Source: an uncultured Chloroflexia bacterium
Lineage (GTDB): Bacteria > Chloroflexota > Anaerolineae > B4-G1 > SLSP01
Assembly (NCBI GenBank): GCA_963751345.1
Contig: CAVVUS010000038.1
Coordinates: forward strand, 68,582-132,581
Direction of reading: 5' to 3'
Length of the DNA stretch: 64,000 nt
Shown here: in pieces, positions 43,198-60,142 of the stretch
Numbering within the stretch: position 1 is the first letter of the stretch
How the letters are laid out: every line of letters starts with the position of its first letter
The notes under the pieces: model-generated
The model's input: the letters and a program-made list of their open reading frames with translations, nothing else
The model's database searches: none
Told to the model about the DNA's origin: nothing
Made by a program: the position numbers and the translations under genes

Positions 43198-43343
43198 TTC
43201 CCTGCTTATCACCACTGGAACCCTGCTCCACCATGACAGTTCGTGCTTGATGGCTGGCTCATCAATCGGCATCGTGTACTCGCGCGTCCTCCGGTAGATC
43301 AGTAGCTGCTGGGTCTGCGCCATTGCTGAAGGGAGGCATCTCT

Positions 43344-45230
43344 ATGTACGGTTACCACGGAAAGATACTTCATATTAACCTTACAAATCGAAAGACCTGG
43401 ACAGAGGAGAAGCCCGAGTCCTGGTACAAGACGTATATCGGTGGTGTATCGATGGCCTCGCGGCTGCTGTGGGAGAACATCGAGCCAGGCTGCGATCCCC
43501 TCTCGCCTGGCAATCCTATCTGTGTGGCCAACGGAATCTTCTCCGGCACGCCGGTGCCGGTCGGAGGGAAGTATGGTCTGGCATCAAAGTCGCCATTGAC
43601 GGGGTGGGTGGGTGATAGCTTGTCAGGAAGCTGGTTCTCAGTGGCCCTGAAGCGCACGGGCTGGGATGGCATCGTGATCCATGGAGCCAGCGACAGCTGG
43701 GTGAACGTGCTGGTGGACGATGGACGTGTGCTGTTCAGGCGCGCGGACAAATACCTCGGAATGGGCACATTCGAGACGGAGGAGGCCATCCGCGACGACC
43801 TCACCGATGACCAGGTCAGGTCGGCAACCATCGGGCCCGCGGGGGAGAACGGCGTGCTCTTTGCTAACGTCACCAACGACGGGCGGCAGGCAGGGCGCAC
43901 CGGGCACGGGGCGGTGTGGGGCAGCAAGAAGCTAAAGGCCCTGTCGGTACGGGGAACGCAAGGCGTGCGGGTTGCCGATCCGGACACGTTGATGAAGCTG
44001 TCGTTTGAGATCATCGAGGCTTCCCAGGGGCCCCATACCGCAAAGTACCGGATCCTGGGTACCTCAACCAACGTCCTCAACATGAACACCCTCGGCCTGC
44101 TTCCAACCCGCAACTACCAGGAAGGCGTCTTTGAGGGCGCCGAGAGCGTGAGCGGTGAGTACCTTGAGGAACACCACAAGGTGAAGAAGATTGCGTGTGC
44201 GCAGTGCCCCATCGCCTGCGAGCAGGTGTCGGCGGCTAAGCCCGGGCTCTTTGCAGGTGCGATGACCGGCATCGAGTACGAATGCCTCTTTGCCAACGGT
44301 CCCAACTGCGGCATCAGCGATATGAACGCTATCATCAAGATGATCGATACCTGCGATCGTGCCGGTATGGATGCGATGAGCAGCGGCGTGACGGTCTCGT
44401 GGACCATGGAGTCGTATGAGCGAGGCGTGCTGAAAAAAGAGGATTTCGTATGCGAGCGATTCCCCGAAGGCTTCGAACCGACCTTCGGGAACGGTGAGGC
44501 GGCCGTGGCTGTGACCGAGATGATCCGCGACCGGGAGGGCATCGGTGCACTGCTGTCGCTGGGCGTGATGCGCGCCAGCGCTCAGATCGACAACGAGCGT
44601 GGTTCGGAATCGTACAAGTGGGCCATGCACGTGAAGGGCCTCGAGAACCCCGGCTATGATGCGCGAGGCCTCAAGACTTTTGCGCTTGGGCTGGCGGTCG
44701 GGACTCGCGGCGGTTGTCACAATCGGACGGCAGCCTACGATCCCGACATCAAGGGGCAGGTCGATCGCTTCTCCGTGGATGAGACACGTGGCGCGTTGGC
44801 CAAGGACACGGAGGAGTACGCAGCCGTGTACGATACGCTGCCGCTATGCAAGTTCATCCGCCGCTGCTTCACCGGGAAGGCCGACCGCGCGGGGGCCTGG
44901 CCAACAATTGCGGCACTGATCAACGCCACGACCGGCTGGGATTTCGAGTATGCGGACGTGGACCTGATCGGCGAGCGCGCCTTCACGATCAAGAAAGCGT
45001 TCAACATCCGGGAGGGCTGGAGGCGAGAGGACGACGTCCTCAACTACCGCTGGCATCATGACCCGATGACCAAAGGGCCATCGGCCGGGCACATTGTGTC
45101 CGAGGAAGACCTCGAATATATGAAGGACCTCTACTACGAGGCCAAGGGCTGGACGCAGGACGGCCTGATACCGAAATCTAAGCTGGTCGCCCTGGGGATG
45201 GCGGACGTGGCCGAAGAGATCGGCGTCTAG
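43344..45230 (+). CDS. Aldehyde:ferredoxin oxidoreductase (AOR/WOR tungstoenzyme family)
   Basis: KSPLTG, IGPAGEN, AGRTG.GAVWGSKKLKA, CAQCPIAC, EYE, D..GMD.MSSG, HVKGLE.PGYD.R, RGGCH, LCKF. Confidence 0.93.
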   Translation: MYGYHGKILHINLTNRKTWTEEKPESWYKTYIGGVSMASRLLWENIEPGCDPLSPGNPICVANGIFSGTPVPVGGKYGLASKSPLTGWVGDSLSGSWFSVALKRTGWDGIVIHGASDSWVNVLVDDGRVLFRRADKYLGMGTFETEEAIRDDLTDDQVRSATIGPAGENGVLFANVTNDGRQAGRTGHGAVWGSKKLKALSVRGTQGVRVADPDTLMKLSFEIIEASQGPHTAKYRILGTSTNVLNMNTLGLLPTRNYQEGVFEGAESVSGEYLEEHHKVKKIACAQCPIACEQVSAAKPGLFAGAMTGIEYECLFANGPNCGISDMNAIIKMIDTCDRAGMDAMSSGVTVSWTMESYERGVLKKEDFVCERFPEGFEPTFGNGEAAVAVTEMIRDREGIGALLSLGVMRASAQIDNERGSESYKWAMHVKGLENPGYDARGLKTFALGLAVGTRGGCHNRTAAYDPDIKGQVDRFSVDETRGALAKDTEEYAAVYDTLPLCKFIRRCFTGKADRAGAWPTIAALINATTGWDFEYADVDLIGERAFTIKKAFNIREGWRREDDVLNYRWHHDPMTKGPSAGHIVSEEDLEYMKDLYYEAKGWTQDGLIPKSKLVALGMADVAEEIGV

Positions 45231-45261: not shown

Positions 45262-45750
45262 ATGGTTAGCTCAACTTCGAGATACAAGTACATCACCTGT
45301 GACCCGGAGAAGTGCATCGGATGCCAGCTCTGTGAATACGTCTGCTCCTACACCAAGACGGGCGAGTACAATACCTATCGCAGCCGCATTCGCACAGTGC
45401 GCGTGGATGAGATCCTGATTACGGCCATTGCCTGCAGGACCTGCGAGAACGCTCCCTGTGTCACGGTCTGTACTCGTGATGCACTGGAGCAGGATGACGT
45501 CACCGGATTGATCAGCATCGACGCGGACCTCTGTGATGGATGCGCTTGGTGTATCGAGGCGTGCGACTTCGGCGCCATCTCCATCAATCCCCTGACGAAG
45601 CTCGCCGAGATCTGCGACCAGTGTGTGGATGAGGAAGAGGGGCCGCAGTGTGTGCTGTGGTGCCCGAAGGACGCCCTGGAGCTGACGACGCCCGACCAGC
45701 GGGCCCAGCGCGCGAGGCGCAGACTGATAACTGACGAAGCATTGCGGTGA
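45262..45750 (+). CDS. 4x[4Fe-4S] ferredoxin-like subunit (AOR partner, DmsB/HydN-like)
   Basis: CIGCQLCEYVC, CRTCENAPCVTVC, CDGCAWCIEAC, CDQC...PQCVLWCP. Confidence 0.9.
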   Translation: MVSSTSRYKYITCDPEKCIGCQLCEYVCSYTKTGEYNTYRSRIRTVRVDEILITAIACRTCENAPCVTVCTRDALEQDDVTGLISIDADLCDGCAWCIEACDFGAISINPLTKLAEICDQCVDEEEGPQCVLWCPKDALELTTPDQRAQRARRRLITDEALR

Positions 45751-45807
45751 TTGTATTGCGCCGCCGACTCGATGCCAGCTCTGTAATAATGCGTGAGGAG
45801 CTTTGTT

Positions 45808-48414
45808 GTGCCAGATAAGCTACCCCCCCCAGCGGACAGCCATGCTGCCGTGAACAGCCGGCCGGATGAAGATCTCAGAATCGGTGTCTACGTATGCCAC
45901 TGCGGCTCGAACATTGCCAGTGTGGTTACGCCCTCGGAGGTTGTCGACTACGCTCACACATTGCCGGGCGTCGTCATCGCCAAGGAGCATCGCTATATGT
46001 GTTCGGACCCTGGACAGGGCCTGATCCAGGGCGATATCGAGGAGTACGGTCTCAATCGGGTGGTGGTCGCCGCCTGCAGCGTCGCGATGCATGAACCGAC
46101 TTTTCGTTCCTGCATCGCGGACGCCGGTCTCAACCCCTTCTTGTTCGAGATGGCCAACATCCGCGAGCACGATTCGTGGGTTCACTCTCACGAGAAAGAG
46201 GCTGCCCTCGGCAAGGCCAAAGAGATTGTCTCTTCTGCAGTGGCCAAGGTAAGCCATGTCCAGCCGCTCGAGATGTTTGACGTGCCGGTGACCCGACGCG
46301 CGATGGTGATCGGCGGCGGGATCGCAGGGATCAGCGCGGCTCTGGATTTGGCAGATATGCAGATCGAGACGTACCTGGTGGAGAAGTCGCCGACCATCGG
46401 TGGCAGGATGGCCCAGTTGGACAAGACATTCCCGACAATGGATTGCTCGATCTGCATCGAGGCGCCGAAGATGGTCGACGTCGGGAAGAACCAGTTTATA
46501 CACCTCCTGACCTACTCAGAGGTCAAGGAAGTGAACGGCTACATCGGCAATTTCAACGTCAAGGTGGAGCGCAGGCCGCGATACGTCCTACTGGACCGCT
46601 GCACCGGCTGTGGCCTGTGTGCCGAGGTGTGCCCGGTCGACGTCCCCAACGATTTCGAGGAGGGATTGGGATCGCGCAAGGCCATCTACGTACCGATGGC
46701 TCAGGCGGTACCCTCTATCTACACCATCGATCGCGATGCTTGCATCGAATGCTACAAGTGTGTAGACGCCTGCGGCTCACTGGAGGCCATCAACTTCGCG
46801 GAGGAACCGGAGATCATCGATCTCGACATCGGAACGATCATTGTCGCCACGGGGTACGATACCTGGGATCCCACGCCTATCGAGGAATATGGCTTCGGGC
46901 TCTACGACAACGTGACGACGATGATGGAGATCGAGCGCCTGCACTGCGCAGGTGGGCCCACGGTTGGGGATTTCATCCGGCCCTCGGATGGAATGCAGCC
47001 GAAGCGGTTGGGGCTCATCCAGTGCGTCGGATCGCGTGACAAGCGCTACAACGAGTACTGCAGCGGCTTCTGCTGCATGTATACGATCAAGAATGCGATG
47101 CTCCTCAAGTGGCTGTATCCCGAGATGGATATCACGATCTTCAGAATCGACATTCGCACGCCGGGCAAGACCTACGAGGAGTTCTACGAGCGGGCGCGGG
47201 GCGCGGGGATTCATTTTGTCCAGGGGCGACCTGCCGAGATCCGCGAGGTGCCTGGCACCGGGAACCTGATTGTGAGAGCGGACAACGCAAGCCTGGGGCG
47301 ACCGGTGGAATACGAGTTCGACATGGTGGGTCTATCGACGGCTGCGATTGCCTCTGATGGCTCCGTGGATCTGGCCCGCGTGTTGACGGTGCCGACGGAC
47401 AGCCACGGCTTCTTCATGGAGTCCCACCCAAAACTCAAGCCGATCGACACGCCAACGGAGGGCATCTTCCTTGCCGGTGCGGCGCAGGGGCCCAAGGATA
47501 TCCCATTGAGCGTCGGTCAGGGAAGCGGTGCTGCGGGTCGCGCTGCGCGCGTGCTCTCACACGACACCTGGGAAATCGACCCCATCGTAGCCTACGTCTA
47601 TCCGGAGCGGTGCATCAACGCACGCGGGGGAAAGTGTACGATCTGCTATGACGCTTGCCCTTACGGCGCGATTGACAACCGTCCCGGCTCCGGAGAGGCC
47701 ACGCGCATCGTTCCGGCAAAGTGTCACGGCTGCGGGACTTGCGTGGCCGAATGCCCACAGAACGCGATTACCCAGCATCACTTTACCGACGGACAGATCT
47801 TGGCGCAGATCCACGCGCTTCTCGCCGATCGGCCCGAGGAGAAGGTGCTGGCATTCACCTGCCGGTGGTGTAGTGGAATGGGAGCGGACAATGCCGGCGT
47901 GAGCCACTTCGAATATCCGGCGAACACGCGCAATATCATGGTGATGTGCGCGGGGCGAGTGGATCGCGACTTCGTGATGGAGGCGTTCCGCCTCGGCGCG
48001 GGAGCCGTCCTGGTCTCCGGATGTCACCCTCAGGACTGCCACTACATCGACGGACGCCAGCATGCAGAGGATCGCATGAGCAAGCTGGCAGTACAGCTTG
48101 ACAAGCTGGGCATTTCCGAAGGGCGCTTCCGGTTGGAGTCAGTTTCGGCGACGGAGGGCGCAAAGTGGTCGCGCATTATGCGTGAGATGAGTGACCGGGT
48201 GCACGAGTTGGGCGTCGGGCAGATAGCCGCCGAGACCGATGCAGCCCGCCCACAGCTCACGCGTTTCCTGCGGCGAATGGGAGAGGTCCCCGGCGTCGCC
48301 GAGGTGCTTCGCCTCAGCGAGGCGGAAAGGTTGCACGGTATCGGCGCCCCCAGTGCGGCGAACCCGGTGACGCATGACATCAAGCAGCCCAGCCCCGTGG
48401 CAGGAGGTGAGTAG
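45808..48414 (+). CDS. hdrA: Heterodisulfide reductase subunit A fused to an MvhD [2Fe-2S] domain
   Basis: GVYVCHCG.NI, ANIREH.SWVH, IGGGIAG, LDKTFPTMDCSIC, QCVGSRD..YCSGFCCMY, GPKDI, ferredoxin inserts; C-terminal FTCRWC, MCAGRV, SGCHPQDCHY. Confidence 0.93.
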   Translation: MPDKLPPPADSHAAVNSRPDEDLRIGVYVCHCGSNIASVVTPSEVVDYAHTLPGVVIAKEHRYMCSDPGQGLIQGDIEEYGLNRVVVAACSVAMHEPTFRSCIADAGLNPFLFEMANIREHDSWVHSHEKEAALGKAKEIVSSAVAKVSHVQPLEMFDVPVTRRAMVIGGGIAGISAALDLADMQIETYLVEKSPTIGGRMAQLDKTFPTMDCSICIEAPKMVDVGKNQFIHLLTYSEVKEVNGYIGNFNVKVERRPRYVLLDRCTGCGLCAEVCPVDVPNDFEEGLGSRKAIYVPMAQAVPSIYTIDRDACIECYKCVDACGSLEAINFAEEPEIIDLDIGTIIVATGYDTWDPTPIEEYGFGLYDNVTTMMEIERLHCAGGPTVGDFIRPSDGMQPKRLGLIQCVGSRDKRYNEYCSGFCCMYTIKNAMLLKWLYPEMDITIFRIDIRTPGKTYEEFYERARGAGIHFVQGRPAEIREVPGTGNLIVRADNASLGRPVEYEFDMVGLSTAAIASDGSVDLARVLTVPTDSHGFFMESHPKLKPIDTPTEGIFLAGAAQGPKDIPLSVGQGSGAAGRAARVLSHDTWEIDPIVAYVYPERCINARGGKCTICYDACPYGAIDNRPGSGEATRIVPAKCHGCGTCVAECPQNAITQHHFTDGQILAQIHALLADRPEEKVLAFTCRWCSGMGADNAGVSHFEYPANTRNIMVMCAGRVDRDFVMEAFRLGAGAVLVSGCHPQDCHYIDGRQHAEDRMSKLAVQLDKLGISEGRFRLESVSATEGAKWSRIMREMSDRVHELGVGQIAAETDAARPQLTRFLRRMGEVPGVAEVLRLSEAERLHGIGAPSAANPVTHDIKQPSPVAGGE

Positions 48415-49208
48415 TGGCAGCCCATAGTCAGGACGTGCTGAACCCCTTCCTAGCCGAGGTGCTTGAGACTCAAGGGGGACGTCTGGTGCAGCAGTGCTAT
48501 CAATGTGGTACCTGCTCCGGCTCCTGTCCCGTTATCGACGATATGGCATATGGCCCGCGACGCATCATGCATATGATCCAGGCAGGGATGGAGGCTGAGG
48601 TTCTCAGCAGCAAAGACATGTGGCGTTGTGTCTCGTGCTACTCCTGCGCAAATCGCTGTCCTCGCGAGATCGAGATCACGGATCTGATGGCCGACCTCCG
48701 GCGTATGTCCGTAGCGAAAGGTTACGCCCACGACAAGGAGGCGGAGTTCGGTGAGGCTTTCGCCCAGACGGTCCAGGTTCACGGGAGGCTCTTCGAGCCG
48801 GAGCTTCTGACGCGGTACTATGCGCGCGTGCTCGACGTGGCGAGCCTCGCCGGGATGGTGCCCCTGGGTCTCAAGATGCTGCTCAAGGGCAAGCTGCCCT
48901 TTGTGCCTGAGCGTGTGGAGGATCCGGGTGAGATCGCGGCTATCGGCGTCGTGGCCTCGACGCAGCCGAAGTTCGCGTCGGGCCTCCGGGGTGGGCGTCC
49001 TTCCTCCCCCGCGCGGCATAGCAGTTACTATGCTTCCGAGGCGGGTGGGGAGAAGTCAGGAGAATCTTGGCGCCTTCTTGGTGGCGTGCTTGGCGGGGCG
49101 CTGGTCACGCTGCTTGCCGGGCTGCTGCTAGGAGCTGGCGGCCGGGTACGCCCTGAGCGAAGCCTCAGGACACGCCCTGAGCGAAGCCGAAGTAGAGGGA
49201 GAACCTGA
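48414..49208 (+). CDS. hdrC: Heterodisulfide reductase subunit C with C-terminal extension
   Basis: CYQCGTCSGSCP, PRRIM, WRCVSCYSCANRCPREI; overlaps hdrA and hdrB. Confidence 0.88.
   Translation: MAAHSQDVLNPFLAEVLETQGGRLVQQCYQCGTCSGSCPVIDDMAYGPRRIMHMIQAGMEAEVLSSKDMWRCVSCYSCANRCPREIEITDLMADLRRMSVAKGYAHDKEAEFGEAFAQTVQVHGRLFEPELLTRYYARVLDVASLAGMVPLGLKMLLKGKLPFVPERVEDPGEIAAIGVVASTQPKFASGLRGGRPSSPARHSSYYASEAGGEKSGESWRLLGGVLGGALVTLLAGLLLGAGGRVRPERSLRTRPERSRSRGRT
49148..49188. repeat. 17-bp direct repeat (24-bp period), REP-like, in the hdrC 3' end
   Basis: ACGCCCTGAGCGAAGCC at 49148 and 49172; CCTGAG-cgaagc-CTCAGG hairpin. Confidence 0.75.
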
Positions 49209-50089
49209 TGACCACCGTGGCACCCTACGCATATTACCCGGGATGCAGTCTGCTCTCCGGAGCAAAGGAATACGATCATTCGATCCGGGTCGTATTCGCA
49301 CATCTGGGCATCGAACTGGTGGATCTGGAAGACTGGTCGTGCTGTGGCGCCGTCCACGCGGACGTGCATAACCCGGATGGGGCGGTTCTCCTGCCGGCGC
49401 GAAACCTTGCGTTGGCAGAATCACAGGGCATGGACCGCATACTGGCGCCGTGCAGCGGCTGCTACCGCAATCTGCGTCGCGCCAGCAAGCGGGTGGCCTC
49501 AGACAAGGCGATGCGGCTTAAGGTCAATGACCACCTGAAGGAAGGCCTGGCACTGACCACGGATGTCGAGGTCATGCACCCGCTCTATGTGCTCCTCAAC
49601 GAATATGGCCTCGATGGGGTGAAGGCCCTGGTGACCCGTCCCCTCGAGGGGCTGCGGGTCGCATCCTACTATGGCTGCATGCTGACGCGGCCAAAGGACC
49701 GGTTTGATAGCCCCGAACGGCCCATCGGCCTGGATCATCTCGTCCACGTGCTGGGCGCTGAGATCGTCGACTATCCGATGAAGGCGAAGTGCTGCGGTGG
49801 GGCGATGGCACTCTCTCACAGTGAGGTGACCGCCCGCCTGACCGGCAACGTCCTGTTGTCGGCGAAGGAATCTCAGGCGGACATCGTGACCCTGGCATGC
49901 CCCATGTGTCATACGGCGCTGGACGCCTACCAATCCAAGGCCGAGCGGGCGCTACACCGCTCCCTGGATCTTCCGGTCGTCTACTTCACACAATTGATGG
50001 GGTTGGCGTTCGGGCTCGATCCCACGTCGCTGGGTTTCGAACGGCATATGGTGTCGCCTCAGCCCCAATTGGCACGCCTAGGCTTCTGA
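49208..50089 (+). CDS. hdrB: Heterodisulfide reductase subunit B
   Basis: YYPGC, DWSCCGA, PCSGCY, YYGC, KCCGG, ACPMC..LD.YQ, LPVVYFTQLMGLA (two CCG domains). Confidence 0.93.
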   Translation: MTTVAPYAYYPGCSLLSGAKEYDHSIRVVFAHLGIELVDLEDWSCCGAVHADVHNPDGAVLLPARNLALAESQGMDRILAPCSGCYRNLRRASKRVASDKAMRLKVNDHLKEGLALTTDVEVMHPLYVLLNEYGLDGVKALVTRPLEGLRVASYYGCMLTRPKDRFDSPERPIGLDHLVHVLGAEIVDYPMKAKCCGGAMALSHSEVTARLTGNVLLSAKESQADIVTLACPMCHTALDAYQSKAERALHRSLDLPVVYFTQLMGLAFGLDPTSLGFERHMVSPQPQLARLGF

Positions 50090-50098
50090 GGAGTTGGG

Positions 50099-51122
50099 AT
50101 GAAACGTGGAACAACGCTGAAACGTCGAACCGAACAGACGTTGACCCTGGAACGCAAGATGGTGACCCATCACGACGTGCTCCAATGGGATCTGGATCGA
50201 TGTGTGGGGTGCCAGCTCGGGCCCAAGGTCTGTCCCAAGGATGCGCTATCACACGTCGGCGGAGCCGTTGTCGAGGGTCGTCTCGCGACCAAGCTTTTGG
50301 TAGACGTCGACACCGAGAAGTGCGTCTTCTGCGGCATGTGCGTGGCGATGTGCCCCGTCAACGCGATCTCGATGACGCTGGACGGCGAGTCACACGTACC
50401 CGTTCAGGCCTATGAGGCCTTCCCGCTCCTGATCGAATCGCAGACGTTCGATCCTGACGCATTCGACTGGAGCCTCAAGGACTTTGTGATCGATAACTGT
50501 CCGACCAAACGTGATCAGCTACGATGAGAGCCTGCATACTCTGGCAGTCGATGATGTGCATTGCATCCACTGTCGCCAGTGCGAGGTCGCGAGTGATGGC
50601 GCGTTTCACGTCGAGCAGGCGTGGGAGGGCACGGTCATGCTCAGGCGAGAGGAATGTGTCGAGGGATGCCTGGCCTGCGCCGATATATGCCCCACGCGGG
50701 CGCTCTACGTCGACGATGCGGGCGAGCTCGTGCTTGCCGACTACTACTGTATCAAGTGCGGGGCATGCGTGCAGGTCTGTCCGGTGGAGCCCGTTCTGGA
50801 GACCTATGAGGTTATGCTTCACTCACAGGGCGTCACGCACGTGAAACAGCTAGAGCGCATCGCCAATACTGAGGAGCTCCCCATATGGGTGGAGCGGTGG
50901 CGTGTGCGGCACACCGACGTGCAGAGCGGCGCGTGGGTTGAGGCGCTGGTCAAACTGGCCGATGACAAGGCGATGATGGTCGAGATTGAGCGCAAGCGTG
51001 CGATCAAGCGGCGCGATCTGATTATCGCGCTCAAGGGTGGGAAGAAGCGCCAGGAGCACGAGGAGCGCGAGGCTGCCCGGCACGACGAGCTTCTGCGGGC
51101 ACTGAAGGGTAGTCCGACCTGA
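50099..51122 (+). CDS. Polyferredoxin (FwdF/MvhB-like), frameshift near 50510
   Basis: CVGCQLGPKVCP, CVFCGMCVAMCP, NCP, CIHCRQC, CVEGCLACADICP, CIKCGACVQVCP. Confidence 0.82.
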
Positions 51123-51262: not shown

Positions 51263-51290
51263 TCCGCCTTGGGATTAGGAGGCGAGGAGC

Positions 51291-51648
51291 TTGATCGATC
51301 CATACGCGCTTGTAGGTATATTTCTGGTCGTCGCCGTCATCTTTGGCGCGGCACCCATCATCCTGGCTTGGCTGGTCAGCCCCAAGAAGCTGAACTCTCG
51401 CAAGATGCAGGTCTATGAGAGCGGTAACCCCACTTTCGGCGAGACCTGGATCGAGTTCAAGCCGCAGTACTATCTGTTCGGGCTGGCGTTTGTTGCGTTT
51501 GATGTTGAGGCCGCGTTCCTGTTTCCCTGGGCTCTGGCATACAATCGAGCTCTCACTCTTTGCCGTCTTCGAGGCAATGGTCTTCCTGGCGCTGCTTGGC
51601 GTAGGCTTGATCTACGTCTGGCGCAAGGGGTGGCTGGAGTGGGTGTAG
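51291..51648 (+). CDS. nuoA: Complex I subunit NuoA, frameshift near 51548
   Basis: K...YESG, YYLFGLAFVAFDVE..FLFPWA, then YVWRKGWLEWV* in the shifted frame. Confidence 0.9.
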
Positions 51649-52780
51649 GAGCGGTTGGCCAGATCCTACTGCGGATTGGCGGCGCCTTCGCGATGGCGCT
51701 CGTCCCCCTGGTTTCGGTGCTCTTCCTCATTTGGGAGGCTCGCAAAGTAATCGCCAGGATGCAGGACCGCCTGGGACCCACGAATGCAGGCACGTATGCA
51801 GGTCCCTACGCGCTCCTTCAGACCTTCGCCGATGGCATCAAGATCCTGACCAAGGAATTGATCATCCCCGAGGGAGCGGACAGAGTCGTCTTCATCGCTG
51901 CGCCGATCGTCGTTGTTGCGGTAGCTATCGCAGTGTGGGCCGTCGTTCCCCTGGGCCCGAGCGGTCTACAGGTCGTGGACCTGAACGTCGGCGCCTTCTA
52001 CGTCGTGGCCATCTCATCGCTGGCCCCTTTCTCGATGATCATGGCCGGATGGAGCTCCCGAAACAAGTACGCCGAGGTCGGCGCGTTCCGGGCGGTGTCG
52101 CAGATCGTCGGATACGAGATTCCCCAGATTCTGGCCCTCTTGATCCCCGTGCTCCTGACCGGATCGCTCTCATTGCAGGACATCGTGCGGGCCCAGACCG
52201 TTCCCTTCGGCCTGGCGGTGCCTCTGGCGGCTCTGATCTACTTCCTCGCGACCGTTGCGGAGGTGGGAGACTGCCCTTCGAGTTGGCCGAGGCCGACTCG
52301 GAGATTGTTGCCGGCTATTTCACCGAGTACAGCGGCATGATGTTTGGCGCGTTCTATCTGGCCGAGTTCATCAACAACTTCACCGCGTCGATCATCTTCA
52401 CCGTGCTGTTCCTTGGCGGTTGGCGGGGGCCTTGGGTGGCGCAAGTCCCACTTCTTGGCCCGGTCTGGCTGTTGCTCAAGTCCTTCGTGGTGTTCAATGT
52501 GCTGATCCTCTTCTGGGCCGCGATGCCGCGGCTCCGGATAGACCAGGTGCTTTCCTTCAACTGGAAGTTCCTGGTGCCCCTGGGTCTGGTCGTGCTGTTG
52601 GCGGTTGCCTTTGTGGACAAGCTGATGGTGGAGGTCGGCATCACGGGGGAGTGGGCGAAATCCGCAGGGCTCCTGGGCACGAATCTGCTGCTCGGAGCCG
52701 TCGTCGTGGGGATTCTGAGTCTCACCGGCCGCCGGATCAAAGAGCGCAAGACTATGCGTGAGCCCGAGGCGGCTCGCTAA
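51639..52780 (+). CDS. nuoH: Complex I subunit NuoH, frameshift near 52270
   Basis: RK..ARMQDRLGP, LQTFADGIK..TKE, NKYA..GAFR...Q..GYE, RLPFELAEADSEIVAGYFTEYSG, PRLRIDQ..WK; GTG start overlaps the nuoA end. Confidence 0.9.
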
Positions 52781-52795
52781 GGTGTAGGGGGCAGC

Positions 52796-53299
52796 GTGTC
52801 TATTTCGTTGAGCGAGATTGTCTTTATCTTCTTTGCTGTGCTCTCCCTTGGCGCCGGCGTGCGCGTTGTGACGAGTCACCGCATATTCCACGCAGCGCTA
52901 TGGTTGATCGGGATGTTCTTCAGTGTAGCTGCTGTCTACATGCTCCTGCAGTCGCCCTTCATGGCCGGCATTCAGTTGTTCATCTACATCGGGGGCGTCG
53001 CCGTGTTGACGGTCATCGCCATTATGGTGACCAAGGGCAACATGCGCCGCGACAAGAAGACATTGGCGAATGGCTGGTCGTCTGCTATCGTGTCCGGCGC
53101 ACTGTTCTTCGTGATGGTCTGGTTTATCGTGCAGTTGCCTCTGCCGGAGGCCCCGACATTCCCCATACTGGATGACGGCATCTCGCTTCTCGGGGCTGCC
53201 CTCGTGGATCCGGGCGGCTATCTGCTTCCGTTCGAGGTGGTGTCTGTTATGCTGCTCGTCGTCCTCATCGGCTCTCTATATCTCGGAAGGGAGCGGTAG
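52796..53299 (+). CDS. nuoJ: Complex I subunit NuoJ
   Basis: HAALWL, QLFIYIGGVAVL, YLLPFEVVS.MLLV.LIG. Confidence 0.9.
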   Translation: MSISLSEIVFIFFAVLSLGAGVRVVTSHRIFHAALWLIGMFFSVAAVYMLLQSPFMAGIQLFIYIGGVAVLTVIAIMVTKGNMRRDKKTLANGWSSAIVSGALFFVMVWFIVQLPLPEAPTFPILDDGISLLGAALVDPGGYLLPFEVVSVMLLVVLIGSLYLGRER

Positions 53300-53303
53300 C
53301 CCT

Positions 53304-53618
53304 ATGGCCGGTGTGCCCCTGTCCTGGTATCTGATTCTGGGTGCGGCGCTCTTCTGCGTGGGCGTCTATGGCATATTGGCCAATCGCAATCTGATCGTCA
53401 TCATGATGTCGATCGAGATGATGTTGAACGCTGTCGTGCTCAATCTTGTGGCGTTCGCCCGATTCATCGAGCCGGCCCGTATCGTGGGCAAGACCTTTGC
53501 GATCATTGTCTATGCCGCTGCCGCTGCAGAGGCTGCTTTGGGGCTTGCCCTCACGATTGCCATCTGGCGTACCGAAAACACGGTCGCTGTTGAAGAGATC
53601 GATCTGCTGCAGGGCTAG
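53304..53618 (+). CDS. nuoK: Complex I subunit NuoK
   Basis: LF.VG.YG...RN....MSIEMMLNA, AAAEAALGLA. Confidence 0.92.
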   Translation: MAGVPLSWYLILGAALFCVGVYGILANRNLIVIMMSIEMMLNAVVLNLVAFARFIEPARIVGKTFAIIVYAAAAAEAALGLALTIAIWRTENTVAVEEIDLLQG

Positions 53619-53664: not shown

Positions 53665-55950
53665 ATGCCTTCTAGCCTGTCGATTTCCTGGTTGATCCCG
53701 GTGGGCCCCTTCCTGGCCTTTGCAGTGATCTCACTGTGGGCGCATCGATATCGCGTCCTGAGCCAGGTCCTTTCCATCGCGGGGATTCTCGCATCCGTGG
53801 TCTTCTCCCAGTTGGCCTTCTGGAGCACCGTTCGCACGCCGGACGTGTTCCACTCGGTGCTGCTGCAGTGGCTCGAACTCGGGACGGAGCACGTGGGGTT
53901 GGGCGTGTATCTGGATCCGACGGCCGCAGTATTGGCGGCGATGGTCAGCTTCGTCTGCCTGATGATCTTTCTTTACAGCATCGGCTACATGCGGGGCGAC
54001 GAGAAGATCAGCCGGTTCTTTGCGTATATCTCGCTCTTTGCCGGGGCGATGCTGGGTGCTGCCATATGTGACAATCTCCTGGCACTCTTCCTCTTCTGGG
54101 AGATCATGGGTACCTGTTCCTACCTGCTCATCGGCTTCTGGTGGGAGAGGAAATCGGCGGTGAAGGCTGCGCTCAAGGCCTTCATTGTCACAAAGATCGG
54201 CGATCTCTTCCTGTTGCTCGGGCTGGTCCTCCTCTACGCGCAGGTGGGCAGCCTGGCCTATGCCGATGTCTTCAACGCGACAACTGTGGCGCGCCTGGCG
54301 CAGACCCCGTACATCGGTCAGCTCACGGTCGCGACGGTGGCCGGACTGCTTCTCTTTGGGGGGACGGTCGGCAAGAGTGCGCAGTTGCCCCTGCACGTGT
54401 GGCTTCCCGACGCGATGGAAGGCCCGACTCCAGTCTCGGCACTCATCCATGCGGCAACGATGGTCTCCGCGGGTATCTATTTGCTGGTCCGCGCTTTTCC
54501 GCTACTGGTCGCGTCACAGGCCTTGCCCGCCGTCGCGCTCGTCGGTACGCTGACGGCGGTGTATGCGTCGGTGGTGGCGATTGCCCAGAACGATATCAAG
54601 CGGGTGCTGGCCTTCTCTACCATCAGCCAGTTGGGGTATATGGTGGCCGCCATCGGCATCGGTGCCTATACGGCCAGCTTTTTTCACCTCATTACCCATG
54701 CCTTCTTCAAGTCATTGCTCTTCCTCGCCGCAGGGTCGGTGATCCACGGGATCGAGCACGGTCATCATCACACGCGCGGCCACGCCGCGCCTGTCAAGAC
54801 CCCCGAGCTCGACTTCAGTCCGAACGACATGCGGCGGATGGGAGGGCTAGCTTTCCGGATGCCGGCGACGGCGCTCACCTTCTTGGCCGGGGGCTTGGCG
54901 CTTTCAGGCTTCCCCTTGATCTCGGCGGGCTTTTGGTCGAAGGATGCCATCCTCGCTCAGGCCTGGGGCCAGAGCGGTTATGTCTTCTGGGGCTTGCTTT
55001 TCGCCGCCGGACTGACTGCCTTCTACACGGCGCGGCAAGTGTGCATGACCTTCCTGGGGAAGCCGCGCTCGCGGGCGGCGGTGTACGCGCGTGAGAGCGC
55101 GCTGGTGATGACGGTACCTCTGGGGTTCCTGGCCATCTTCGCGGTAAGCCTTGGTTGGTTGGGCATACCGAGTGAGTTCCCGGTGCTGGGCAAGTTGCTG
55201 CCGGATGTATTTGGCCCCTTTGTCGAGACCTCGCTTGCCCGCATCGGTGCGGAGTTCGCCGGGTCCGCTCCCGGCGAGCCGTTGGCGTGGCAGCCGATGA
55301 TCCTGGCTGTAAGCTTCGCGCTTGGGGGGCTCTTCTTGGGGTGGTGGGTCTACGGACGGCGGGCCGGGGCCGCCAATGCTTCCGAGGAGGAGTACGTCGA
55401 CCCCCTGCAGCGCGTCATGGAGAGGGTGCGACTGGGATGGTTCTACCGCGCAATGGAGCGCCGTTTCTATATCGACGGTCTCTACGAGAAGGTCTTCTCA
55501 GCGCCTGCTATCTGGCTGGCAGATACCTTACACCTTGTTGACCGAGACGCGATCGATGCACCGATCGTGGCGTTCGGCCAAGGGTTCGGCAAAACCGGGC
55601 GCGTCGCACCCACCGCCGGTCGCCAGGAACGCGGGCTCTTTGATCAGTTCGCCGACGCCATCAGCCTCTTCAGTCGACTGCTATCAAGTATGGCGGTGAC
55701 CCTGGATGAGCGGCTGATTGACGGTCTTGTCAACGCCGTCGGACGCCTCGGTCGCGGCTTCTCGAACCTCTTTGGGCTGCTCGATAGTGACTTTATTGAC
55801 GGTGCCGTACGGGCGATTTCCGATGCAACCGGTGCGCTGGGGCGATGGATGCGCCGGATGCAGAGCGGCCTGCTGCCGGACTACTTGTGGAATGCTTTTA
55901 TGATTATCCTGTTGCTGGTCGCAGCCCTGGTGCTGTTCCAGCGTATCTGA
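53665..55950 (+). CDS. nuoL: Complex I subunit NuoL with elongated lateral helix
   Basis: WEIMG..SYLLIGFW, GKSAQLPLHVWLPDAMEGPTPVSALIHAATMV, STISQLG, HLITHAFFK, GFWSKD; 761 aa. Confidence 0.95.
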   Translation: MPSSLSISWLIPVGPFLAFAVISLWAHRYRVLSQVLSIAGILASVVFSQLAFWSTVRTPDVFHSVLLQWLELGTEHVGLGVYLDPTAAVLAAMVSFVCLMIFLYSIGYMRGDEKISRFFAYISLFAGAMLGAAICDNLLALFLFWEIMGTCSYLLIGFWWERKSAVKAALKAFIVTKIGDLFLLLGLVLLYAQVGSLAYADVFNATTVARLAQTPYIGQLTVATVAGLLLFGGTVGKSAQLPLHVWLPDAMEGPTPVSALIHAATMVSAGIYLLVRAFPLLVASQALPAVALVGTLTAVYASVVAIAQNDIKRVLAFSTISQLGYMVAAIGIGAYTASFFHLITHAFFKSLLFLAAGSVIHGIEHGHHHTRGHAAPVKTPELDFSPNDMRRMGGLAFRMPATALTFLAGGLALSGFPLISAGFWSKDAILAQAWGQSGYVFWGLLFAAGLTAFYTARQVCMTFLGKPRSRAAVYARESALVMTVPLGFLAIFAVSLGWLGIPSEFPVLGKLLPDVFGPFVETSLARIGAEFAGSAPGEPLAWQPMILAVSFALGGLFLGWWVYGRRAGAANASEEEYVDPLQRVMERVRLGWFYRAMERRFYIDGLYEKVFSAPAIWLADTLHLVDRDAIDAPIVAFGQGFGKTGRVAPTAGRQERGLFDQFADAISLFSRLLSSMAVTLDERLIDGLVNAVGRLGRGFSNLFGLLDSDFIDGAVRAISDATGALGRWMRRMQSGLLPDYLWNAFMIILLLVAALVLFQRI

Positions 55951-55969
55951 TCTTGGAGGGCAACCTGTG

Positions 55970-57519: not shown

Positions 57520-59007
57520 TTGGCACCTGTGGCTTCGTTCTGGTATCTGCTTCCGGCATTATGTCTTCTCACCGGCGCGGTCGTGATCATGCTGGTGGAC
57601 CTGATTTTGCTGCGTCCGGCACGCATGGTCAAGTCGGTGTGGTGGCTTGCATTGATCACCACGCTGGTCAGCCTCGGCGCCTCCTCGCTTCTGGGGAAGA
57701 ACGACGTCGCTCGCGTGCTTGCGGTGCTCACGTATGATGCCTTCACGGTCTTTGTCTGGCGCCTGCTCTTGGTCGCCTTGGCCCTGATCGTTCTCTTGAG
57801 TGAGTCCTATATCCGCAATCAGGATGATGTGGAACCGGGCCTCTTCTATGCGTGCCTGATGCTTTTTGGGTTCGGGGCTCTACTATTGGCGGCGAGCGAT
57901 AACACGATCATGCTCTCTATTGGCCGTCGACTTCCTGAGTATCGTTGGATACGTGTTGACCGGTTTCCTGCATCACGACAAGCGGTCGACCGAGGGCGCG
58001 ATCAAGTACCTGATCTACGGGGCAGCAGTCTCGGCGGTCATGGCGTTTGGCCTCTCGTGGCTATACGGGCTGTCGGGGACGGCCGACTATGCCTTGACGG
58101 CCAAGGCACTCGCGGGCCAGTGGTCGTGGGCTTCGGACGCGGTGGTGCCGGCCGTGGCGCTTATCCCGGTGCTCATTTTCGTCTTGGCCGGCTTCGCTTT
58201 TAAGATCGGGGCGGCCCCATTTCACCAGTGGTTACCTGATGCGTTCGAGGGGGCTCCGACACCGGTCACTGTGTCCCTGGCGATCATTCCGAAGGTGTCG
58301 GGTTTCGCCGCGCTCGTGCGGCTGACGATGATCATGCTTCCCCCCGATCTACAGGTCGGTCTCTGGTGGCGATGGCCGATGCTCGCGCTCCTGGCTGTTG
58401 CGGCGATGACAATCGGCAACCTGATCGGCCTCTGGCAGTCGAACATCAAGCGGCTTATGGGATATTCGGGAATTGCTCAGGTCGGCTATGCGCTTATCGG
58501 CGTGGCCATTGCGACTGAACGCAGTCTGACTGCCCTGCTCCTCTTCCTGACCGTCTATGCACTGGCCGAGCTGGCAGCGTTCGCCGCGATCACCGTGATG
58601 TCGGAGCGCATCAAGCTCGACACGATTGCCGACTATCGGGGGCTCTATCGTCGTGCCCCGGCGCTTACGATCGTGCTTCTCATTAGCGTGATGTCGCTGT
58701 TTGGCATGCCCGGCACCGGCGGGTTCATGGGGAAGCTCTGGCTCTTCATCTCGGCCTTGGAGGCGCGGCGGATCTGGCTGCTTGTCCTGGCCGCGCTCAA
58801 TAGTGTGGTCTCTGTTGCCTACTACTGGCGGATCATCCAGTCTACGTTCATGCACTCCGACGAGGGATTGCGCCTGTTGCTGTCCCGGCGGCTTCGTGGG
58901 TCGTCCTCGTCGTGGCGACACTGGGTGTTCTCGGACTGGGCCTCTTCCCGAACATCGTGCTGCATTGGGCACAGGCTGCAGTAAGCGGTTTCTTCCTCTC
59001 AGGGTAG
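57520..59007 (+). CDS. nuoN: Complex I subunit NuoN, frameshifts near 57920 and 58875
   Basis: EGAIKYL, FKIGAAPFHQWLPD.FEGAP, PK, IKRLMGYS.IAQ.GY, GMP.T.GF.GK, YYWR; last TM ends GFFLSG*. Confidence 0.9.
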
Positions 59008-59035
59008 GTGGATGGGTGAGGGCGCCGTCAAAGGT

Positions 59036-60142
59036 ATGAGGGTCGCCCTGGTCCATGACTGGCTGAACCAGTACGGGGGGGCCGAGCGCGTCCTGGAGCA
59101 TCTGGTGGACACGTTCCCCGGTGCGCCGATCTACACCAGTATGTACTGGCGTGAGGGGATGCCACCACAGTACAGGGGATGGGACATCCGGACGACGTGG
59201 ATGGATCGTCTGCCGGGCATCTACCGATCACACCAAGCCTATCTTCCCCTCTATGCGCTGGCATTCGATCGACTGCGCCTGGGTGGCGGGCAGTACGATC
59301 TCGTGATCAGCAACAAGAGTGGCTTCTGCCACGGCGTCAGCACTGGCGATACGCCGCATCTCTGCTACTGCCTCTCTCCCACCCGCTATGTCTGGCAGTT
59401 CGACCACTACGCTGCACGCGAGCAATTGCCCTCCATCGTTCGTTTGCTCCTGAGACCCGTGGTTGCCGGTCTTCGTCGCTGGGATTACCGCGCCGCACAG
59501 CAGCCGAATCTCCGATTTGTGGCGATTTCGCGCGAGATCCAGCAGCGGATCCAGACTTTCTATGGGCAGCCCTCCACCGTGATCTACCCGCCCGTGGACA
59601 TCAGCCGCTTTTCGCCAGGGGCCGCCCCGGCCGATGCCGATCTGCCTGGCGGCTACTATCTGGTCGTCTCCAGGCTCATTCCCTACAAGCGGATTGATCT
59701 CGCCGTTCGGGCTTTCACAGAACTTGGCCTTCCCCTGGTCGTCGTGGGCGGCGGGCGCGATCGGCAAGCCCTGGAGTCCATCGCGGGCCCCACAGTTCGC
59801 TTCCTGGGACACGTGCCCGACGCTGAACTGCCGGCGCTCTTCGCAGGGTGTAAGGCGTTCGTATTCCCGGGCTACGAGGACTTCGGCATTGCTCCCGTGG
59901 AGGCCCAGGCCGCAGGGCGCCCTGTGATTGCCTATCGGGGAGGGGGCGCGCTGGATACTGTGATTGAGGGGGGGACCGGCGCCTTCTTCTCGGAGCCCAC
60001 CGCAGCGTCGCTCGCCGAAGCGGTCCGTGGTTTTGACGCCGGCGCTGTCGATATCGACGTCATCCGGAAGAACGCGGCCCGGTTCTCCGTCGAACGATTC
60101 CGCGAGGAGTTCGCCGTCGAGGTGGCGCACCTGTTGCGTTAG
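59036..60142 (+). CDS. Glycosyltransferase family 4
   Basis: MRVALVHDWL...GGAERVL, SRL.PYKR.D, EDFGIAPVEAQAAGRPV. Confidence 0.92.
   Translation: MRVALVHDWLNQYGGAERVLEHLVDTFPGAPIYTSMYWREGMPPQYRGWDIRTTWMDRLPGIYRSHQAYLPLYALAFDRLRLGGGQYDLVISNKSGFCHGVSTGDTPHLCYCLSPTRYVWQFDHYAAREQLPSIVRLLLRPVVAGLRRWDYRAAQQPNLRFVAISREIQQRIQTFYGQPSTVIYPPVDISRFSPGAAPADADLPGGYYLVVSRLIPYKRIDLAVRAFTELGLPLVVVGGGRDRQALESIAGPTVRFLGHVPDAELPALFAGCKAFVFPGYEDFGIAPVEAQAAGRPVIAYRGGGALDTVIEGGTGAFFSEPTAASLAEAVRGFDAGAVDIDVIRKNAARFSVERFREEFAVEVAHLLR

Follow-up and report, generated by a model that had tools for sequence, protein, structure and literature searches.

The window analysed here, a stretch of 64,000 nucleotides on a contig from an uncultured Chloroflexia bacterium, carries complex I genes whose nuoL product has an exceptionally long lateral helix, the amphipathic strap that precedes its last transmembrane helix (TM16). 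The strap of the window NuoL consists of one canonical module plus three extra modules of 26-29 residues, some 79-81 residues more than usual, and the operon contains a single nuoM. Modules of this kind are real, old and conserved across the order to which the window belongs. In the loci that we sampled, surplus modules together with one nuoM are the majority state, and module number is tied to pump number only in the subset of operons with two nuoM genes. Our tentative proposal, to which we give a probability of about 0.4, is that each extra module may dock a further copy of the single NuoM, so that the strap would set NuoM copy number.

The number of pump modules sets the number of protons per electron pair in complex I, and gene content has so far been taken to determine it: three, four in the ‘2M’ form and five in one manganese oxidiser. 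The straps of the window's order offer room for five to nine pump positions, compared with three encoded pump genes. Were the proposal correct, these would be the first pump arrays in the complex I family to be built from repeated copies of one subunit, which would amount to a new principle of assembly and give evolution an easy means of adjusting the bioenergetic gearing of energy-starved anaerobes; were it false, the conserved docking modules might have a second role. Either answer bears on the function of the lateral helix, which is still debated, and the clade provides a natural length series of +2 to +6 modules. The open full-text literature, with most subscription journals and supplements outside it, yielded no report of at least three strap modules or of a homo-oligomeric NuoM.

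Anatomy of the long strap

The nuoL gene (53665..55950, forward strand) lies between nuoK and nuoM in the gene order nuoA-H-J-K-L-M-N, which the window shares with its relatives, and forms one intact frame of 761 amino acids (aa) with matches to PF00662 and PF00361. The product passes the curated NuoL models NF005141 (585.1 bits; cut-off 556) and TIGR01974 (571.4 bits; cut-off 407.5). Its AlphaFold2 model, which has a mean predicted local distance difference test score (pLDDT) of 72.7 and is matched by solved NuoL/ND5 chains at a Z score of about 48 over residues 3-645, predicts an antiporter-like core, TM15, an amphipathic lateral helix and a hydrophobic TM16, with C-terminal helices at residues 603-642, 651-700, 709-732 and 737-760.

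The initial annotation had described 107 residues of this region as an unbroken series of four units where canonical NuoL has one, and both points stand: positions 55540-55860 translate exactly so within the 761-aa open reading frame, and the strap measures 132 residues from the FYID motif (starting at residue 601) to QSG (residue 733), as opposed to 51-53 residues between the same anchors in canonical NuoL/ND5, an excess of about 79. Its parts are as follows.

55462..55539, forward strand: strap module 0, residues 600-625 (RFYIDGLYEK...), the canonical beginning of the strap, which rests on NuoL itself
55540..55626, forward strand: strap module 1, residues 626-654 (29 aa), Asp626/Asp631 and then a Gly/Pro-rich stretch
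55627..55704, forward strand: strap module 2, residues 655-680 (26 aa), Glu655/Asp660, amphipathic with a hydrophobic moment (muH) of 0.45
55705..55782, forward strand: strap module 3, residues 681-706 (26 aa), Asp681/Asp686
55783..55860, forward strand: strap module 4, residues 707-732 (26 aa), Asp707/Asp712, the counterpart of the single module of canonical NuoL
55861..55947, forward strand: QSG turn and last transmembrane helix TM16, residues 733-761, mean Kyte-Doolittle (KD) hydropathy 1.78, model helix at 737-760

With the solved proteins of E. coli (3RKO, 7Z84), T. thermophilus (4HE8) and Paracoccus (8QBY), the window NuoL shares the fold up to model residue ~645, the FYxD anchor, the Asp contact module and the QxG turn before TM16. 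Residues 1-561 of the E. coli chain 7z84_L superpose on model residues 5-624, and an alignment with the Paracoccus protein agrees with three extra modules. Residues 646-732 have no counterpart in solved NuoL/ND5, the superposition ending at model residue ~645.

Several of the units resemble one another beyond chance: units 3 and 4 score z = 6.3 and units 1 and 4 z = 5.1, with none of 500 shuffles reaching either value. The likeness of unit 2 is weak, 30 of 500 shuffles being as good against unit 3 and 238 of 500 against unit 1. A recent duplication of the modules was ruled out by the finding of no DNA-level repeat, and the module duplication must therefore be old.

Conservation within the strap is concentrated on two positions per module. 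In an alignment of 20 sequences with 42-66% identity to the window NuoL, the only strap positions kept in at least 90% are positions 1 and 6 of the modules (Asp626/631, Asp660, Asp681/686 and Asp707/712), with Glu655 kept in at least 70%; outside these positions the strap varies far more than the NuoL core (entropy 1.85 versus 0.84). The spacing of these residues is also regular. Across 110 NuoL proteins, the 272 distances from one module Asp to the next are exactly 26 residues in 144 cases, 27 in 65 (chiefly at the first step) and 29 in 26, and QxG follows the Asp of the last module by 21-22 residues in every case. Inner modules are held at exactly 26 residues across 40-60% sequence divergence. 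By position, Asp626 falls at Asp563 of E. coli, the superposition ending at model residue 624 and E. coli residue 561, and the relevant passages of Belevich et al. (PMC3274701) place E. coli P564 to N566 (L565, N566) in the kink of the lateral helix, closest to NuoM in 3RKO. Judged from this positional comparison, the Asp-x4-Asp pair of each module corresponds to the part of the E. coli helix that comes nearest to NuoM.

The modules are amphipathic, with muH values of 0.45-0.60, and the periodicity of their hydrophobic residues, taken across residues 601-732, is strongest at 97-98 degrees, equivalent to seven turns per 26 residues, a value that partly follows from the repeat itself. The idea that the modules are transmembrane hairpins was ruled out by hydropathy (KD means of -0.3 to 0.6, with charged residues in each module). 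The AlphaFold2 model breaks the helix at residues 643-650 and 701-708, but pLDDT is below 50 over residues 635-709 and the modelled path of the strap is unreliable.

Module number and nuoM number across lineages

A search of a large protein collection with the C-terminal 172 residues of the window NuoL returned 33 matching proteins of 480-829 aa, the window's own included; the named sources among them were NuoL or hypothetical proteins of Anaerolineae, Anaerolineales, Chloroflexia, Myxococcales and Acidobacteriota. Within the window's order, 54 of 145 genomes matched at E ≤ 1e-6, and within its genus 17 of 21. We fetched 40 loci from the 54 matching genomes, and exactly one nuoM was found in all 40 (41 of 41 with the window, for whose operon the initial annotation had already given a single nuoM), either between nuoL and nuoN or before the contig end.

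Strap length is measurable in 38 NuoL proteins of the order, including that of the window: 12 have about two surplus modules, 22 have three (a count that includes two straps of 120-121 residues), one has four, two have five and one has six. These counts omit L079 and L112, where NuoL is in pieces, and L105, which has a degenerate end and no QxG, all three still being counted for gene order. Lengths change by whole modules (103, 129-136, 161, 181 and 207 residues, the last corresponding to +6), and the odd lengths of 106, 109-111 and 120-121 residues show that the first extra module tolerates inserts of 3 to ~18 residues. In genus g1 the strap is 132-133 residues in eight of 11 measured loci, the window included, and 106, 129 and 161 residues in the others.

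Across the Chloroflexota as a whole, the C-terminal query matched 93 of 401 genomes, a tally that includes the window genome and the otherwise unused genomes G227 and G173, and 40 loci were sampled from a spread of the 401. All 13 canonical-length loci, with 51-53 residues between FYxD and QxG, have one nuoM. The 17 two-nuoM loci have straps of 77-81 residues, of which 16 were measured by script and that of L071 was read by eye at 78; the automatic anchor failed for L071 and for the divergent one-nuoM loci L064 and L065, which are absent from the scripted length counts but present in those of gene order. The 24 loci with a measured strap of +1 length (77-82 residues) are divided between two nuoM genes in 16 cases and one in eight.

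The same mismatch extends beyond this sample. Among metagenome loci, the three-module Chloroflexia-type loci with enough flank were all L-M-N (four of four), and loci with a strap of 77-78 residues in which nuoN was reached were L-M-N in 28 cases versus L-M-M-N in five. The 80 genome loci from other phyla (L115-L194) comprised 64 L-M-N, one L-M-M-N and 15 incomplete loci, and the strap was 77 residues, meaning one surplus module, wherever it could be measured. Acidobacteriota account for 52 of these 64 L-M-N loci, Myxococcota/Deltaproteobacteria for five and others for seven; a strap of 77 residues with a single nuoM is the rule in Vicinamibacterales, in other Acidobacteriota and in the metagenome-assembled genomes of Myxococcota/Deltaproteobacteria that were sampled.

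The initial annotation had equated each added NuoM with about 26 residues of strap, and had called for module number to be compared with nuoM count across genomes. The equation holds in the two-nuoM subset, where the increment (77-81 against 51-53 residues) equals the pitch of the window modules, but the two numbers are untied elsewhere, surplus modules with one nuoM being the majority in the sampled loci. The mismatch agrees with a remark in the accessible passages of PMC9040806, according to which NuoL insertions also occur in complexes without an extra NuoM and are possibly ‘in evolutionary transition’.

The closest described system is the ‘2M’ complex I (Chadwick, Hemp, Fischer and Orphan 2018, ISME J 12:2668), which, as summarized in passages of PMC9040806, PMC7117926 and PMC8004040, has a second nuoM and an insertion of ~26 residues in the NuoL lateral helix. 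In the Chloroflexi 2M operons treated in those passages of PMC7117926, nuoB, a fused nuoCD and nuoI stand apart from the membrane genes. Compared with the 2M complex as portrayed there, the window system has the same lengthening of the strap by 26-residue steps, the same split nuoB/nuoCD/nuoI as the Chloroflexi form, and a NuoM that is closest to M1; it differs in having no second nuoM, and in having three extra modules instead of one, with up to six in relatives. Complex_I_3 of ‘Candidatus Manganitrophaceae’, in the account excerpted from PMC9040806, likewise has more than three pump positions and a 26-residue strap insertion, but its five pumps are separately encoded (two MrpD-like subunits in place of NuoL, two NuoM and one NuoN), whereas the window's order has one L, one M and one N facing four to seven modules.

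No nuoB, nuoC or nuoD is present in the window. Contig C10 of the same genome (locus L001, 7046-10115) encodes NuoB (213 aa), a fused NuoCD (640 aa; PF00329 and PF00346) and a NuoI-like protein (194 aa) with no nuoH adjoining, and this locus is presumably the quinone module that serves the window's membrane genes. The window NuoL belongs to the 11-subunit kind of Chloroflexota complex I, split over two loci.

The ribosome-binding site and the evolutionary rate of nuoM served as two tests, both of them by proxy, of the idea that NuoM is present in several copies. The pump genes that follow nuoL in the window are as follows.

55955..55959, forward strand: GGAGG ribosome-binding site of nuoM, within the 19-base gap 3′ of the nuoL stop codon
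55970..57505, forward strand: nuoM, the sole copy in the operon, 511 aa counted from ATG, TIGR01972 545.8 bits
57520..59004, forward strand: nuoN, in three frame pieces with breaks near 57916 and 58850-58870; intact in relatives at ~495 aa

The strength of ribosome-binding sites was expressed as the energy of the duplex with the anti-Shine-Dalgarno (anti-SD) sequence in kcal/mol, with medians taken per group. The window nuoM scores -9.8 versus -3.0 for nuoL, and the nuoM of the canonical operon in the same genome, an internal control, scores -6.2. Medians were -5.9, -6.1 and -6.5 for nuoL, nuoM and nuoN in canonical Chloroflexota operons (13 loci); -5.5, -6.6, -4.5 and -5.6 for L, M1, M2 and N in two-nuoM operons (17 loci); -6.1, -9.3 and -8.6 for L, M and N in the window's order (40 loci), where nuoN starts with TTG in 21 of 35 cases; and -6.2, -11.1 and -5.6 in the other Chloroflexota loci with surplus modules and one nuoM (10 loci). 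By family, the nuoM median was -10.0 in nine surplus-module families versus -6.5 in 10 canonical families, with a one-sided Mann-Whitney p = 0.0014 that overstates the evidence because the families are related. The result was unchanged with start codons picked by position only, and intergenic gaps were similar across the operon groups. The NuoM/NuoL-core ratio of p-distances was 0.84 in the order, 1.09 in canonical operons, and 1.14 and 0.90 for M1 and M2 of two-nuoM operons. Within the Chloroflexota, then, surplus-module operons show signs, at the level of sequence, of NuoM being made in excess.

A FastTree phylogeny of 97 NuoM proteins with five NuoN as outgroup, the rooting of which is uncertain, united the NuoM proteins of the order in one clade (support 100). 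This clade joins the L-proximal M1 of two-nuoM operons and further lineages that combine a long strap with a single nuoM (support 96), M2 forming a separate clade. Together with the split nuoB-CD-I locus, the tree suggests that the order is a relative of the 2M lineage with one nuoM and a growing strap.

Readings of the surplus modules

The proposal that the extra modules dock further copies of NuoM draws some indirect support from a conserved docking motif in each module, a strong nuoM ribosome-binding site and a slowly evolving NuoM. A fuller version, which we regard as conceivable but doubtful, would stack the single NuoM under each 26-residue module (L-Mn-N, with n of ~3 to 7), such that the gain or loss of repeats in nuoL would retune the proton-per-electron ratio of an AOR/Hdr-linked complex I. 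In the main proposal, the membrane arm of the window organism would be L-M(~4)-N, with the strap as a ruler whose length would set how many pump modules are built in and hence how many protons move per electron pair. A high proton ratio would suit very low-potential AOR/Hdr chemistry in either direction, with electrons paying for it or being produced by it, and the conserved AOR/Hdr-like neighbours of these operons make a very low-potential partner plausible.

A number of points weigh against multiple copies of NuoM. To our knowledge, none of the solved complexes of the complex I/Mrp/MBH family has the same antiporter-like subunit more than once in an arm. Module number differs among close relatives: one tight NuoM clade contains L090 (about +3), L094 (+5), L099 (+5) and L100 (+6), and the module numbers of L090-L100 would imply six to nine pump modules. 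By our own estimate, 10 protons per electron pair are already beyond a forward ferredoxin-to-menaquinone reaction, and nine pump positions in forward operation are hard to credit. The conserved Asp residues might cap helices at kinks instead of serving in docking, and the AlphaFold2 model of the extra modules, with pLDDT below 50, yields no geometry. The translational evidence is also mixed. Besides the relatedness of the families, the order has a strong nuoN site too (-8.6), and SD strength is only a proxy for translation, as translation is for stoichiometry. The 64 L-M-N loci of other phyla gave no nuoM signal (medians of -3.0 for nuoL, -3.0 for nuoM and -7.2 for nuoN), nuoM having the strongest site in only seven of 64 and nuoN being strongest by median, and their NuoM/NuoL rate ratio was an ordinary 1.12.

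The principal alternative, possible though in our view also doubtful, is that the arm is an ordinary L-M-N and that the extra modules are Asp-capped, kink-joined amphipathic helices on its surface, forming a belt, a zigzag or slack with no pump beneath and with another role or none, their number drifting through unequal recombination between repeats. The distribution of modules speaks for it, as they outnumber pump genes in eight of the 24 Chloroflexota +1 loci, in all 41 order loci and in all four three-module metagenome loci, and as L-M-N prevails over L-M-M-N by 64 to one in other phyla and by 28 to five in metagenomes. The differences in module number between near relatives, the inserts tolerated by the first extra module, the low-confidence helix breaks predicted at residues 643-650 and 701-708, and the lack of a ribosome-site or rate signal in Acidobacteriota all point the same way. 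However, a strap of mere surplus leaves unexplained why the Asp pair should be the one conserved feature of each module, and why the inner pitch should be exactly 26 residues. Nor does it account for the constant length of 132-133 residues in eight of 11 loci of genus g1, or give a reason for the strong nuoM ribosome-binding site and slow NuoM evolution in the Chloroflexota.

A longer reach or a docking platform is improbable. The strap might pass NuoN and place TM16 beside the small subunits or NuoH, or the modules might hold an Hdr-like/polyferredoxin module or a neighbouring complex. If a residue adds 1.5 angstrom, the 39-78 angstrom of one or two extra modules would, by our estimate, roughly fit the arm beyond NuoN, but three to six (~117-234 angstrom) would overshoot the whole proximal arm. 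The platform variant draws on gene linkage: in the window and among loci L074-L113 of its order, genes for AOR, ferredoxin, HdrA/MvhD, HdrC, HdrB and polyferredoxin accompany the long-strap nuo cluster in two arrangements, preceding it in family f1 and following it in family f84, and the link is absent from all 40 nuo loci of other Chloroflexota orders. Several long-strap loci of the order lack Hdr genes within the fetched flanks, a weak objection given how short those flanks are, and the repeated motif aligns with the NuoM-contact site and with no known Hdr-binding element. Whatever the strap does, the linkage suggests an Hdr/AOR-coupled 11-subunit complex I, and hints at an undescribed electron input or output for this kind of complex.

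The initial annotation had allowed for pump subunits that ‘come from elsewhere’, and this we consider very unlikely. The window genome does contain further PF00361 genes, in the canonical nuo operon on contig C43 (L, M and N, with a one-module strap), in a Mbh/Hyf-like cluster on C11 (two genes) and, distantly related, on C44 (one gene), but those on C43 and C11 sit with NuoB/D/H partners of their own, and the match on C44 is partial and away from nuo genes. Whole-genome scans of the relatives G525 (94% complete, +3), G434 (+5) and G401 (+6) found in each a single L, M and N together with one distant PF00361 protein, so that surplus modules persist in three genomes with no spare standard pump gene, and subunits from elsewhere were rejected on this ground. 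No extra membrane subunits are encoded in the 3.7 kb that separate nuoM from nuoN in the subclade with the longest straps.

Some details of these loci may be recorded. Unrelated genes separate nuoN from the nuoL-nuoM pair in L090 (5515-8826), where they encode a glycosyltransferase and a radical SAM protein, and in L100 (11112-14751), where they encode YbjQ, ABM and an iron alcohol dehydrogenase; the only other strong PF00361 match in G401 and G434 lies on another contig and is presumably nuoN. The C44 protein (locus L114, 4272-6335) has 688 aa, matches PF00361 partially (E = 9e-11), adjoins no nuo genes, and has as neighbours a 550-aa protein without family matches and a GAF/PAS histidine kinase; each of the five relatives scanned has a counterpart.

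The integrity of the genes bears on the weakest alternative. Compared with intact relatives, the operon has five frame breaks, in the polyferredoxin gene (~50505), nuoA (~51547), nuoH (~52265) and twice in nuoN (~57916 and 58850-58870). Contigs from four other public runs, a comparison used for the frame breaks only and in which the best runs share 0.06-0.22 of sampled words, have single-base indels exactly at the five breaks (in nuoN at 57915/57917 and 58869) and list no indel where they cover 55540-55860. The near-identical relative G535 (NuoM 96% identical) has the opposite pattern, with nuoN intact and nuoL broken, and the breaks are therefore random assembly errors; the frame breaks of the operon are assembly indels. 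The canonical operon on C43 (locus L002) is also broken, in NuoL and NuoD, and gene calls on this assembly will be fragmented. Although these breaks might invite the view that the long C-terminus stems from an assembly error or a pseudogenised operon, that view is hardly credible, and for the strap itself it is refuted, the breaks elsewhere being explained, no indel being listed in the strap where other runs cover it, and the four-module architecture recurring in intact genes of 22 measured order loci (window included) and in metagenome proteins.

Neighbouring genes and minor observations

The remaining membrane genes of the operon and the AOR/Hdr-like genes upstream of it are listed here.

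43323-45230, forward strand: aldehyde:ferredoxin oxidoreductase (AOR)
45262-45750, forward strand: 4Fe-4S protein
45793-48414, forward strand: HdrA2-like protein with an MvhD/FlpD domain
48414-49208, forward strand: HdrC-like protein
49208-50089, forward strand: HdrB-like CCG protein
50099-51122, forward strand: polyferredoxin, with a break near 50505
51285..53618, forward strand: nuoA (break near 51547), nuoH (51681-52780, break near 52265), nuoJ (52796-53299) and nuoK (to 53618)

Directly 3′ of nuoN, at 59012-60142, is a glycosyltransferase family 4 gene, found in the same place in relatives of family f1. Within NuoL, a His-rich loop, HGIEHGHHHTRGH, is encoded at 54745-54790 (residues ~361-375); it is disordered in the model, with pLDDT below 50 at residues 372-382. 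NuoL proteins of the two-nuoM group also have His-rich stretches, located ahead of TM15.

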